DNA of 6,346 bases from Escherichia coli (lineage in GTDB: Bacteria > Pseudomonadota > Gammaproteobacteria > Enterobacterales > Enterobacteriaceae). Below are positions 2,453-6,346 of the stretch, one piece after another; the first letter of the stretch is position 1; each line of letters starts with the position of its first letter. The notes beneath the pieces are model-generated. The model was not told the DNA's origin and did no database searches. It saw nothing but the letters and a program-made list of their open reading frames with translations. The stretch lies in assembly GCF_036507355.1 (NCBI RefSeq), contig NZ_AP027881.1, one strand, 5' to 3'. A program made the position numbers and the translations under genes.

Positions 2453-2850
2453 TTGCTTTTGTTCAGATCGAGGGCAGGATTCGCAAAGTGCTGGCGTTTG
2501 TGCTCACATCCTTTAGACGTTGCGATGCAGGATAGGGCAGACGCCGCAAAATGACGTCATTTGCGGTATCTGCCCCGAAAACAGAATGTTTTCTCCTGAG
2601 CCTGCAGCTGGCTCTCAGAACCCCTACCGCCTCGCAAAGCTCGTTGCTCAACGCCTCACGACCGCACAGTAAACTGTGCACCCGTTCACCGTTATCGATG
2701 GGGTTCAGCGAGCCTTTTGAGCAGTTCGCAGGATTTTAGCCGCTAAAATTCCGGCCAGGCATGTTCGTGCATAGCCATGCAGATGCGCAGAAATCATCAG
2801 GCGCGTTTTTCAGGGGTTGGTGCTGGGAAAGGTGCCGGAAACGGCCCGTT

Positions 2851-2878
2851 CGCCTCAAAATGGCTCTGAGGCGTTTTC
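2851..2878 (+). terminator. Hairpin plus T-run just upstream of Xer site 2
   Basis: CGCCTCA-aaatggctc-TGAGGCG followed by TTTTC. The same GCCTCA/TGAGGC stem recurs before site 3 and in degenerate form before site 1, so it may be part of the recombination-site module rather than only a terminator. Confidence 0.35.
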
Positions 2879-2881
2879 AGC

Positions 2882-2909
2882 GGTGCGGGCAAGGGATGTT
2901 ATGGTAAAT
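2882..2909 (+). other. XerC/XerD-type recombination core, site 2 (GGTGCGGGCAA-GGGATG-TTATGGTAAAT)
   Basis: Same architecture and identical central region and XerD arm as site 1; direct orientation. Confidence 0.75.
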
Positions 2910-2944
2910 TGCTCATCACAGTAGCCAGTTAAGCAGAGGTTAGA

Positions 2945-3271
2945 ATGTTTGGGTTTTTTAAGAAAAAAAAGCTCTATGAAGAGATCTGTAAAGATGCAGG
3001 GATGGCTTTATCTGATGGGTTATTGGCCCAAGGCTTAGCGAGAAACAAAATAGAAGCAATGGGGGCTGGTGCTGTTTTTAGTCAGTCTTTGAGGGAGGCT
3101 GTTTCTCAAGGTTACAAGTCTTCTGATGCGATTGCTGAAGCAAGAAAAAACACATCTCATCATCTAGCTGCTAGAGGGTTTGATTTTGAAACGATCGCAA
3201 GTGCGATTGATGTTTTTTGTACTGCTACAGCATTTGAATCAATGTTAGATCTTGCTCGCGATAAAGGCTGA
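2945..3271 (+). CDS. Hypothetical cytoplasmic protein, 108 aa, low GC
   Basis: ORF with good SD (GAGG 6 nt upstream of ATG); no signal peptide; lysine-rich N-terminus (MFGFFKKKK). Bracketed by Xer sites 2 and 3. No family recognised. Confidence 0.6.
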   Translation: MFGFFKKKKLYEEICKDAGMALSDGLLAQGLARNKIEAMGAGAVFSQSLREAVSQGYKSSDAIAEARKNTSHHLAARGFDFETIASAIDVFCTATAFESMLDLARDKG

Positions 3272-3303
3272 ATATCGAGAGGAGTGACGGGTTGTTATCA
3301 TTA

Positions 3304-3330
3304 GCCTCAGAGTAGATTTGAGGCCTTTTG
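3304..3330 (+). terminator. Hairpin plus T-run after the 108-aa ORF, immediately upstream of Xer site 3
   Basis: GCCTCA-gagtagatt-TGAGGC followed by CTTTTG, 33 nt after the ORF stop; same stem as the site 2 hairpin. Confidence 0.4.
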
Positions 3331-3333
3331 GGC

Positions 3334-3361
3334 GGTGTATGCAGGAGATGTTATGGTAAAT
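3334..3361 (+). other. XerC/XerD-type recombination core, site 3 (GGTGTATGCAG-GAGATG-TTATGGTAAAT)
   Basis: XerD arm identical to sites 1 and 2; XerC arm and central region diverged; direct orientation. Confidence 0.7.
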
Positions 3362-3428
3362 ATGTCTTATTGAGAATATTCTTACTAATGCGCGGTTTTT
3401 TTCTAATTTTTAAATGGATGACTTAAAA

Positions 3429-3806
3429 ATGAAGGCAAGATTTTTTGCAGCCTTGCTTATTACTTTTTTTCTTTCTGGATGTGCGACAGAGGCGGGATAT
3501 CAAAGGGTATTAAATTCATGGATGGGATCTACTGATGTGAGCTTGATTCAGTCATGGGGGCCGCCTCAGCAATCTTATGAACTTTCTGGCCATACCTTCC
3601 TAGTTTATTCAAATAGCTCTAGCTCTTATATACCTGGAGTGGCTCCTACCTATCAGACTACGTTTATTGGTAATACAGCGTATACAAACACCTATGGCGG
3701 CTCGCCCGGCTTTAATGTTAGCTACTCATGTACTACGACTTTTGAGGTTGTTGGCGGGAAAATTGTTAACTGGCGTTATCAGGGCAACAATTGCACATCG
3801 CGTTAG
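3429..3806 (+). CDS. Lipoprotein of unknown function, 125 aa, low GC
   Basis: Signal peptide MKARFFAALLITFFLSGC (lipobox LSGC). Start at 3429 preferred over the track start at 3414 because it begins the signal peptide. Mature part is Ser/Thr/Tyr/Gly-rich with two Cys near the C-terminus. No family recognised. Confidence 0.65.
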   Translation: MKARFFAALLITFFLSGCATEAGYQRVLNSWMGSTDVSLIQSWGPPQQSYELSGHTFLVYSNSSSSYIPGVAPTYQTTFIGNTAYTNTYGGSPGFNVSYSCTTTFEVVGGKIVNWRYQGNNCTSR

Positions 3807-3973
3807 TCGTGTGTCCAATCGTAGTATCAGGTGAAGATACAATAGAGAACTTAATACCCTCTTGGTGGGTATATAAAAACCAAGATGAGCGTAGCGACCT
3901 TCTTTAAACTCGTTCCTTGTGTGTCTTACCCTGCAAAAGGTTTGATTGTGTGGGTGTAAATGAAATCGTTGCG

Positions 3974-4003: not shown

Positions 4004-4011
4004 CTAAAACG

Positions 4012-4112
4012 AAAAAACCGCCCTGCAAGGCGGTTTTTTCGAAGGTTCTCTGAGCTACCAACTCTTTGAACCGAGGTAACTGGCTTGGAGGAGCGCAGTC
4101 ACCAAAACTGTT
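4012..4112 (-). ncRNA. RNA I antisense copy-number control RNA, replicon 2
   Basis: Same reasoning as replicon 1 RNA I; terminator hairpin ACCGCCTTGCAGGGCGGT plus U-run at the 3' end. Ends approximate. Confidence 0.7.
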
Positions 4113-5188: not shown

Positions 5189-5340
5189 ACATCGCTCCTT
5201 CAGTTCATACATCACTTTTACAACACTTTTACAACACTCCTTCGGCCTGTACATCACTTTTACAACACTTTTGCATCACTTTTACATCATTTATACATCA
5301 CTTTTACATCATTCCTTCAGCTCATACGTCACTTTCATCC
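5189..5340. repeat. Tract of roughly 11-bp tandem repeats (core ACAxCACTTTT), iteron-like
   Basis: Repeated units ACATCACTTTT / ACAACACTTTT / GCATCACTTTT / ACATCATTT across about 150 bp, bracketed by direct repeats CCTTCAGTTCATACATCACTTT (5197-5218) and CCTTCAGCTCATACGTCACTTT (5314-5335). The ORFs the track predicts here are repeat-translation artefacts. Confidence 0.7.
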
Positions 5341-5526
5341 TCTGTGCCATTTGTACATCACCCCCTTCCTGAACGTGCTGACAGCGGGTTTTCCGGCTGC
5401 GCCGGCAACGCTTCACGGCCACGCAATAAATTGCGTCCCCGTTCACCGTTTTCGGATGGGAAGAACGCCGGAAACAGGACTTCCCCTGGCTGAATGGTGT
5501 GAATTTCCGCGCTATGCACTTGCGCG

Positions 5527-6346
5527 GGCACTGTTGCAAAGTTAGCGATGAGGCAGCCTTTTGTCTTATTCAAAGGCCTTACATTTCAAAAACTCTGCTT
5601 ACCAGGCGCATTTCGCCCAGGGGATCACCATAATAAAATGCTGAGGCCTGGCCTTTGCGTAGTGCACGCATCACCTCAATACCTTTGATGGTGGCGTAAG
5701 CCGTCTTCATGGATTTAAATCCCAGCGTGGCGCCGATTATCCGTTTCAGTTTGCCATGATCGCATTCAATCACGTTGTTCCGGTACTTAATCTGTCGGTG
5801 TTCAACGTCAGACGGGCACCGGCCTTCGCGTTTGAGCAGAGCAAGCGCGCGACCATAGGCGGGCGCTTTATCCGTGTTGATGAATCGCGGGATCTGCCAC
5901 TTCTTCACGTTGTTGAGGATTTTACCCAGAAACCGGTATGCAGCTTTGCTGTTACGACGGGAGGAGAGATAAAAATCGACAGTGCGGCCCCGGCTGTCGA
6001 CGGCCCGGTACAGATACGCCCAGCGGCCATTGACCTTCACGTAGGTTTCATCCATGTGCCACGGGCAAAGATCGGAAGGGTTACGCCAGTACCAGCGCAG
6101 CCGTTTTTCCATTTCAGGCGCATAACGCTGAACCCAGCGGTAAATCGTGGAGTGATCGACATTCACTCCGCGTTCAGCCAGCATCTCCTGCAGCTCACGG
6201 TAACTGATGCCGTATTTGCAGTACCAGCGTACGGCCCACAGAATGATGTCACGCTGAAAATGCCGGCCTTTGAATGGGTTCATGTGCAGCTCCATCAGCA
6301 AAAGGGGATGATAAGTTTATCACCACCGACTATTTGCAACAGTGCC
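5527..6346 (-). mobile_element. IS26 (IS6 family), complete 820-bp copy
   Basis: 14-bp terminal inverted repeats GGCACTGTTGCAAA at 5527-5540 and its reverse complement at 6333-6346; length 820 bp; encodes the canonical Tnp26 sequence. The element ends at the last base of the window. Confidence 0.95.
5579..6283 (-). CDS. tnp26: IS26 transposase Tnp26, 234 aa
   Basis: Translation MNPFKGRHFQRDIILWAVRWYCKYGISYRELQEMLAERG...GEMRLVSRVFEM matches IS26 transposase as recalled. The track ORF carries a 6-codon upstream extension (MLMELH) that is probably not translated. Confidence 0.95.
   Translation of the reverse strand: MNPFKGRHFQRDIILWAVRWYCKYGISYRELQEMLAERGVNVDHSTIYRWVQRYAPEMEKRLRWYWRNPSDLCPWHMDETYVKVNGRWAYLYRAVDSRGRTVDFYLSSRRNSKAAYRFLGKILNNVKKWQIPRFINTDKAPAYGRALALLKREGRCPSDVEHRQIKYRNNVIECDHGKLKRIIGATLGFKSMKTAYATIKGIEVMRALRKGQASAFYYGDPLGEMRLVSRVFEM

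Follow-up and report, generated by a model that had tools for sequence, protein, structure and literature searches.

The locus examined here raises the question of why a single small gene stands exactly between two recombination sites on a plasmid, whether it moves as a unit of its own, and what it does for the cell that carries it. The gene lies on the plus strand of a 6,346-nucleotide stretch of Escherichia coli DNA (contig NZ_AP027881.1, assembly GCF_036507355.1; the window, in the following, means this whole stretch). It runs from an ATG at 2945 to a TGA at 3271 and encodes a 108-aa protein (WP_032431019.1, UniProt A0A3P1P7N6). An earlier interpretation made from the letters of the window, here called the sequence-only reading, had placed this reading frame between the second and third of three sites for the recombinases XerC and XerD, as one cassette of an array, and the frame, its strand and its position are indeed as described. 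We consider it likely that the gene is the cargo of an Xer cassette moved by the host XerC and XerD; it is a genuine orphan gene, for which we tentatively propose a protective role.

The boundaries of the unit are Xer cores. A degenerate pattern search finds exactly three 28-bp cores in the window, all on the plus strand (939-966, 2882-2909 and 3334-3361), and none in 200 dinucleotide-preserving shuffles of the window. Each consists of an 11-bp XerC-type arm, a 6-bp central region and the XerD arm TTATGGTAAAT. Site 1 (939-966) reads GGTGCACGCAA GGGATG TTATGGTAAAT; site 2 (2882-2909) has the XerC arm GGTGCGGGCAA at 2882-2892, GGGATG at 2893-2898 and the XerD arm at 2899-2909; site 3 (3334-3361) combines the XerC arm GGTGTATGCAG with the central region GAGATG and the same XerD arm. 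The ATG lies 35 nt past the end of site 2, and site 3 begins 62 nt past the stop codon. Plasmid Xer sites have an 11 + 6-8 + 11 architecture, and exchange at cer is catalysed by XerC (PMC5357621). ColE1 (NC_001371) holds the XerD arm once, in its cer core GGTGCGTACAA-TTAAGGGA-TTATGGTAAAT; the window arm is identical to it at 11/11 positions, and the three window XerC arms, read directly from the sequence, agree with cer at 9/11, 9/11 and 7/11. With 11-bp arms, a centre of 6-8 bp and an XerD arm near TTATG(G/T)TAAAT, the cores have the architecture of cer/psi/mwr-type XerC/XerD sites, and natural recombinants with the crossover at the core are present. All cores are direct and on one strand in 15 loci, namely the window and 14 related loci.

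Does the DNA between sites 2 and 3 move? The most direct answer comes from a pair of natural plasmids. Taking exactly 452 bp out of pABW_A32c (NZ_CP067306.1, 3849 bp) gives pXD35007 (NZ_CP089140.1, 3397 bp), and the two backbones differ by 3 mismatches in 3369 bp. In the occupied plasmid the left core is GGTGCGGGCAA-GGGATG-TTATGGTAAAT and the right core is GGTGTATGCAG-GAGATG-TTATGGTAAAT; the empty core of pXD35007 is GGTGCGGGCAA-GAGATG-TTATGGTAAAT, which is the left XerC arm followed by the right central region. This hybrid core confines the crossover to the step from the XerC arm's last base to position 2 of the central region, where XerC cuts. The XerC arm goes with the upstream neighbour, and the central region and XerD arm go with the cassette. 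As delimited by these comparative breakpoints, the unit occupies 2893-3344 of the window on the plus strand and holds, in order, the central region and XerD arm, a 35-nt leader with the Shine-Dalgarno sequence, the open reading frame (ORF), a 3' hairpin and the XerC arm of the next core.

The same boundaries recur in related loci, which were gathered by exact protein look-up, BLAST and a metagenome scan for the 24-mer formed by XerD arm plus leader. The core-to-core distance is 452 bp in 32/32 complete copies, and these copies have 9 upstream junction types and 5 downstream continuations. In 17 loci, similarity to the window (ungapped extension from the ORF) ends inside Xer cores: the left break falls at 2880-2899, within site 2, and the right break in L001 (pABW_A32c), L017 and L018 falls at 3361, the final base of site 3. 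Three replicon types carry the cassette (ColE1/RNAI, rep_cluster_2324 and Rep_3), with a variant cassette of 94% identity on Rep_3 plasmids and the 3849-bp carrier as the third replicon type. The cassette has a GC content of about 43%, against 50-57% in the plasmid backbones, and the 24-mer has no match in the GTDB representative genomes. Together, the 452-bp difference between the occupied and the empty plasmid and the breaks inside Xer cores strongly support the 452-bp unit as a mobile cassette, and they bear out the earlier suggestion of a single-gene mobile unit.

A second cassette follows the same rule. Its product is a 90-aa protein rich in Cys (WP_032725101.1; 2465 assembly blocks list it). 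This cassette is found at 1223-1664 of locus L002 and in many other loci, and its own core half is always GTAGTC + TTATGTTAAAT. It has a canonical terminator ahead of the next XerC arm and usually occurs without the 108-aa cassette. A functional pairing of the 108-aa gene with this upstream gene was considered and rejected, since the 90-aa gene assorts independently (9 of 10 places lack the 108-aa gene). As for the carriers, the backbone shared by pABW_A32c and pXD35007 has a gene for a VbhA-family antitoxin that stands alone, no Fic toxin being visible. One 3849-bp cassette plasmid (NZ_CP034557.1) is deposited under Burkholderia cepacia ATCC 25416, from a single-cell source; the other carriers are all Enterobacteriaceae, and this record may be contamination.

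The window adds a natural recombinant of a larger kind. Directly upstream of the cassette, positions 967-2909 are the complete circular ColE1-like plasmid p655Rt_9 (NZ_CP080064.1), identical at 1943/1943 positions without gaps and opened at its single Xer core. Site 1, the other recombinant junction, joins a foreign XerC arm (GGTGCACGCAA) to the XerD side of the 1943-bp plasmid, and site 2 joins the XerC arm of that plasmid (GGTGCGGGCAA) to the XerD side of the cassette. The arrangement before integration, in which the GGTGCACGCAA arm directly precedes the cassette, is found in nature (locus L019). Because a whole 1943-bp plasmid is inserted at a core, the window is read as an Xer cointegrate of two replicons. 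These replicons share about 500 bp of ori DNA at 94% identity, where RecA recombination would be expected; the junctions nonetheless lie at the 28-bp cores, which argues for site-specific and not homologous recombination. With two RNAI genes (1323-1423 and 4009-4110) and Rop, the window is ColE1-type plasmid sequence, in keeping with the plasmid location that had been proposed. The proposed cassette array stands only in part: sites 2 and 3 do bracket a single gene, but sites 1 and 2 bracket the whole 1943-bp plasmid and no cassette, and the 108-aa unit is the sole true single-gene cassette in the window.

Judged by its substitution pattern, the cargo is a genuine gene under purifying selection. 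Against homologues of 79-94% identity, the ratio of nonsynonymous to synonymous substitution rates (dN/dS, Nei-Gojobori) is 0.087-0.12, with dS up to 1.27. The exact protein WP_032431019.1 occurs in 1732 assembly blocks, nearly all of them contigs shorter than 10 kb, and in 4 of 5426 complete E. coli genomes, on plasmids every time; the small plasmids that carry the cassette are very common in E. coli, Klebsiella and Salmonella. The gene also exists away from Xer sites. An IncFII plasmid of Enterobacter (L007) and a large contig of Klebsiella aerogenes (L004) carry homologues with 79-82% identity, the K. aerogenes one beside Rpn-family genes; Xer cores are absent near the homologue at both loci, and nucleotide homology to these copies spans only the stretch from the Shine-Dalgarno sequence to the stop codon. 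On the IncFII plasmid the homologue is preceded by a gene for a 207-aa protein of unknown function (5352-5975 of L007; N-terminus …RRPSPLQRRVL…), and a fragment of a related gene lies downstream of the K. aerogenes homologue (6405-6668 of L004). These traces may be the remnant of an ancestral shared context.

The expression signals are of unequal quality. The Shine-Dalgarno sequence AGAGG (2935-2939) is where the sequence-only reading saw one, 5 nt 5' of the ATG, and is kept in the homologues without Xer sites. Downstream, a hairpin with an 8-bp stem (GCCTCAGA-GTAGA-TTTGAGGC), followed by CTTTT, occupies 3304-3324 on the plus strand, and in the 94% variant cassette it is present with changes in the loop only. 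The hairpin and T-run noted earlier are thus both there, but as a terminator the structure is weak: the T-run is only four T, the terminator scan fails it, and the fold is no better than that of shuffles (z = -0.36). It is a weak terminator candidate or a part of the recombination-site flank. A candidate extended -10 element (TGGTAAATT, 2902-2910) overlaps the XerD arm; this is our own reading, and the element is not kept in the 94% variant. Codons 2-9 (2948-2974) are homopolymer runs (G3-T6-AAG-A8). Rare annotated 89-aa forms (L063-L065 and L067) are +1 or -1 frameshifts in these runs and are probably sequencing errors or sporadic mutations; on/off switching through the runs is possible.

The protein itself has a mass of 11.6 kDa and a pI of 6.7, and begins with MFGFFKKKK, the lysine-rich N-terminus already noted. 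Neither a signal peptide nor a transmembrane segment was found in it (maximum Kyte-Doolittle 19-residue mean 1.24), in agreement with the cytoplasmic location assigned earlier. Its AlphaFold model is confident (predicted local distance difference test (pLDDT) score 89.4, predicted template modelling score 0.82) and shows five helices with a less ordered N-terminus; the protein is predicted from this model to be a soluble five-helix bundle. An N-terminal motif, M-x-G-[FL]-F-K-K-K, consisting of a hydrophobic block and then a polybasic block, is invariant across the Enterobacteriaceae and Providencia clades, and the residues invariant in both (M1, F5-K8, E12-I14 and G30-S46) sit in the N-terminal half. 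An N-terminal amphipathic helix was considered and rejected, as the hydrophobic moment is only 0.07-0.27. No catalytic motifs were seen in the protein.

The searches place it in no recognised family, as the sequence-only reading had supposed. Pfam, NCBIfam and PADLOC gave no significant match for the protein or its family members, and PHROGs gave only a weak match (phrog_20951, E 0.008-0.02), to a family of unknown function. RecX-like matches stayed below threshold, and RecX, which would call for a score above the family cut-off and a three-helix-repeat fold, was rejected as a candidate. XafT (DUF3653) had no Pfam match at E <= 10, and homologues of the 108-aa protein also occur without Xer sites. 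A HMMER profile run against 1.84 billion representatives recovered the protein's own cluster, one 112-aa Providencia protein (39% identity) and one frameshifted fragment; a second profile search and two word-indexed searches found nothing beyond the two clades. A sequence profile search of the PDB and tblastn against phage genomes gave no match, Foldseek against AFDB50 and BFVD returned only the protein itself and the Providencia homologue with no significant structural neighbour, and a literature search by accession found no mention. Neither a housekeeping homologue nor the lack of conservation expected of a spurious frame, the two outcomes that would have spoken against the sequence-only reading, was thus encountered.

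The Providencia homologue gives the family a second setting. It has 112 aa with a TTG start and lies in Providencia prophages (L011 and L038-L042; in L038 at 8001-8339). In at least 5 mosaic prophages, which differ in holin families, Q types and head modules, it stands antisense between the Q antiterminator and the holin, a typical moron slot. The gene is AT-rich and has its own Shine-Dalgarno sequence and terminator-like hairpins on both sides. Its antisense placement suggests expression in the lysogen.

How the cassette moves may be pictured as follows. We propose that host XerC and XerD would occasionally excise and integrate the 452-bp unit at the 28-bp cer/mwr-like cores of small enterobacterial plasmids. 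The crossover would fall where XerC cleaves, just after the XerC arm and ahead of the 6-bp central region; the XerC arm would then stay upstream, and the gene would take the central region and XerD arm along with it. Fusion of the whole 1943-bp plasmid beside the cassette would be the same reaction, and direct cores predict excision as a circle. Cassette recombination is probably rare, given a downstream core devoid of accessory sequences and a one-base mismatch between the two central regions, and it may need particular conditions. The difference between the cores was seen by global alignment of each flank with the 200 bp upstream of the ColE1 cer core, scored as z against shuffles: z is 6.5 for the flank of site 1, 3.4 for that of site 2 (2682-2881 on the plus strand, the cer-like accessory sequence of the 1943-bp plasmid, adjoining the XerC arm) and 0.1 for that of site 3, where a strict ARG-box pattern likewise found no match. 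Site 3 lacks cer-like accessory sequence because the ORF fills that space. A short inverted repeat of the CTGAG…CTCAG type, followed by G/C-rich bases, stands directly upstream of every XerC arm (window 3304-3333, 2860-2881 and 915-938; ColE1 3890-3908) and is common to cassette 3' ends and true cer-like flanks. The cassette ends may mimic the last part of an accessory region. Summers in 1989 reportedly found that cer derivatives with 6-bp central regions recombine intermolecularly and without accessory factors.

Several observations weigh against this picture of mobility. Site 3 has no accessory sequence upstream of it. A gene placed between direct psi sites with accessory sequences was about 100% excised in Xer+ E. 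coli (PMC9113270); the cassette is widespread and stable by comparison, which implies that the pair of sites 2 and 3 is a poor substrate. Crossover by another mechanism within the 17-bp central-plus-XerD stretch that the sites share would yield the same products. One copy, moreover, has its left junction at a non-canonical site inside an ORF (…GCATA-CCAAGGGATG; L045 and L046). These loci are 1268-bp contigs from two metagenomes, each with a 127-bp terminal repeat, which implies a 1141-bp circle or tandem unit; the unit consists of the 452-bp cassette and 689 bp that are 98.6-99.3% identical to the Pantoea plasmid pPSP-b98, and has no recognisable replicon. Possible readings of it are a circle of two excised units, a tandem array that was collapsed, and an illegitimate Xer event. 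Alternatively, the 452-bp segment might be a passive scar, left over from plasmid fusions and deletions or from homologous recombination between short repeats, and not a self-moving unit. That the window is already a cointegrate of two replicons, that the commonest context (90-aa gene, 108-aa gene, 125-aa lipoprotein gene) resembles a fixed backbone, and that the crossover is inseparable from one within the 17 shared bases would all fit such a scar. We nevertheless regard it as unlikely, as the unit is present or absent as exactly 452 bp in plasmids otherwise 99.9% identical, stands behind 9 different XerC arms on three replicon types, has in the 90-aa cassette a counterpart that assorts independently of it, and belongs to a cointegrate whose junctions avoid the ori homology. 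The notion that the ORF is spurious and the conserved element non-coding is effectively refuted: the lack of homologues of known function and the annotated 89-aa forms would suit it, but dN/dS is about 0.1 with saturating dS, the homologue with 39% identity folds to the same model (template modelling score 0.89), the AlphaFold2 pLDDT is 89, the Shine-Dalgarno sequence is conserved, and the 89-aa forms are homopolymer frameshifts.

With the Xer cassette and its genuine gene preferred on these grounds, the function of the protein can be weighed. We tentatively favour a protein that acts alone, by binding and not as an enzyme, and that would protect its carrier through superinfection exclusion or an immunity-type effect. 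Such a protein would be constitutively expressed from multicopy plasmids and from lysogen prophages, and its site of action may be the inner membrane, on the cytoplasmic side, reached through the hydrophobic-polybasic N-terminus. This guess is made because the gene is self-contained and single on three kinds of mobile element, because it is oriented for lysogen expression in prophages, because its carriers are otherwise cargo-poor small plasmids, one backbone having the lone VbhA-family antitoxin, and because the conserved N-terminus could dock on a membrane. For the roles on which the sequence-only reading had speculated (an immunity, anti-restriction or defence/counter-defence factor), the moron slot of the Providencia homologue is the sole positive hint. 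On the other side, the contexts surveyed show no toxin, defence or receptor gene as a regular neighbour, PADLOC returns 0 families at E <= 1, a sigma-70 promoter scan of 2700-3500 found none, and the low helical hydrophobic moment of the N-terminus makes membrane binding a conjecture. A narrower proposal, an orphan immunity protein against a cytoplasm-acting toxin of competitors (a bacteriocin, or a toxin of contact-dependent inhibition or type VI secretion systems), appears improbable: the family is small, soluble, all-helical and hyper-restricted like many immunity proteins, bacteriocin and immunity genes are classic cargo of ColE1-type plasmids (PMC8683028), and the 3849/3397-bp backbone has its lone antitoxin gene, but there is no toxin gene beside the homologues on the IncFII plasmid, in the K. 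aerogenes island, in the Providencia prophages or on about 30 small plasmids, and no Pfam or NCBIfam immunity family matches. Neither profile nor neighbourhood, therefore, places the protein among the immunity proteins of nuclease bacteriocins or polymorphic toxins. Slightly less probable still is a role in anti-defence or host takeover, in which the protein would help the plasmid or phage to establish itself, for instance by inhibiting restriction or a different immune system. Small plasmid and phage binding proteins of unknown fold are often anti-defence proteins, and the family is present on an IncFII plasmid; however, the prophage gene runs antisense to the late operon, outside any early or leading region, a position that points to expression in the lysogen and not on entry, and the carriers are mostly non-mobilisable small plasmids. 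Service to the element itself, either as an XafT-like factor for Xer activation or directionality at cores without accessory sequences or as a plasmid maintenance or copy-number factor, is very improbable. Site 3, being without accessory sequences, would need an activator, and mobile-element Xer activation factors such as XafT of TLC-phi are known; yet homologues with 79-82% and 39% identity live in contexts without any Xer cores, neither DUF3653 nor any other Pfam family matches at E <= 10, and the 90-aa cassette with the same core type spreads without the 108-aa gene.

The remaining parts of the window concern the two plasmids and their surroundings. The only cargo of the 1943-bp plasmid is a gene for a 77-aa lipoprotein (1034-1267), directly after its Xer core; it is absent from the annotation of the PLSDB record, and its family matches are at the level of the lipobox only. 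After site 3 follows a gene for a 125-aa lipoprotein (3429-3806) that matches phrog_3716, a family of unknown function, at E = 4e-17. In all 10 contexts sampled it stands behind the 108-aa gene, but the latter is often found where the lipoprotein gene is absent, and no Xer core lies downstream of the lipoprotein gene; this lipoprotein may be backbone or a functional partner of the 108-aa gene in that plasmid lineage. Downstream of Rop, at 5208-5311, there are about 9.6 tandem copies of the 11-bp unit TACATCACTTT, which look iteron-like. The left flank (1-815) holds a DMT-family transporter gene (127-588) and the remnant of an IS6-family transposase (about 590-815), and the right flank (5522-6346) an IS26-type transposase gene on the minus strand (5579-6301). 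With mobile-element DNA on both flanks, the cointegrate was probably captured into a larger IS26-rich plasmid.

Among known systems, ColE1 cer, pJHCMW1 mwr and pSC101 psi come closest in their sites, with 11-bp arms, 6-8-bp spacers and, in cer, an identical XerD arm. Sites 1 and 2 have cer-like flanks, and the crossovers lie on the XerC side, as in XerC-first exchange (PMC5357621). Those sites, however, occur once per plasmid and serve to resolve dimers, whereas here cargo stands between several direct cores; moreover, the cer central region has 8 bp and not 6 bp, and site 3 has no accessory sequence. Tran et al. (2012) and Zakharova et al. (2002) are said to have described Xer- and oriT-mediated modular evolution of small ColE1-like plasmids carrying qnrB19 or restriction-modification genes. 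According to two articles that cite them (PMC6764390, PMC8683028), Xer sites give rise to cointegrates and to the integration of genes in small plasmids. Hosts and plasmid type are the same as here and Xer cores are likewise the seams that join segments or whole plasmids, whereas the cargo in our case is no resistance or restriction-modification segment but one orphan gene, and the minimal 452-bp unit around it has an empty-site counterpart on record. In Acinetobacter, pdif modules are likewise separate gene units with XerC/XerD sites at their ends, and they turn up in many plasmid contexts (PMC7399989, PMC6449649). Their sites are inversely oriented; here all cores in the window and the 14 related loci are on the same strand, predicting circle excision and not inversion or exchange, and the host family differs, so the cassette is not an Acinetobacter-type pdif module. 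Nor is it an integron gene cassette: it resembles those minimal, mostly single-gene, promoter-poor units, which stand in same-orientation arrays, are excised as circles and carry many orphan ORFs, but its boundaries are double-stranded Xer cores served by housekeeping recombinases, with no attC, attI or IntI and no integrase ORF in the window, and its arrays have 1-3 units. The lambdoid Q-holin morons are matched by the Providencia homologue, an AT-rich, independently expressed single gene with terminator-like hairpins in that slot; the window copy differs in being plasmid-borne and Xer-bounded.

The mobility mechanism is thus of an already known kind, Xer-mediated plasmid rearrangement, and the cargo is a protein family of unknown function. 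A more far-reaching interpretation, namely an integron-like pool of single-gene cassettes on small enterobacterial plasmids, run by the housekeeping XerCD, with the 108-aa protein founding a new family of stand-alone protective proteins (for phage exclusion, defence or immunity) that this pool shares with prophage moron slots, seems to us doubtful, though less so than the rival explanations above. Xer-bounded modules are well studied in Acinetobacter; for Enterobacteriaceae, a few resistance plasmids provide most of the known cases. Against this background, the locus offers a minimal and clean example, a single-gene unit of 452 bp for which a plasmid with the exact empty site exists and whose crossover maps to the XerC cleavage position, and a convenient model for the recombination of Xer cores without accessory sequences and for cargo exchange among cryptic small plasmids. 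Conserved orphan genes common to moron slots have repeatedly proved to have defence or exclusion functions, and the 108-aa gene is a reasonable candidate for phenotypic screening.

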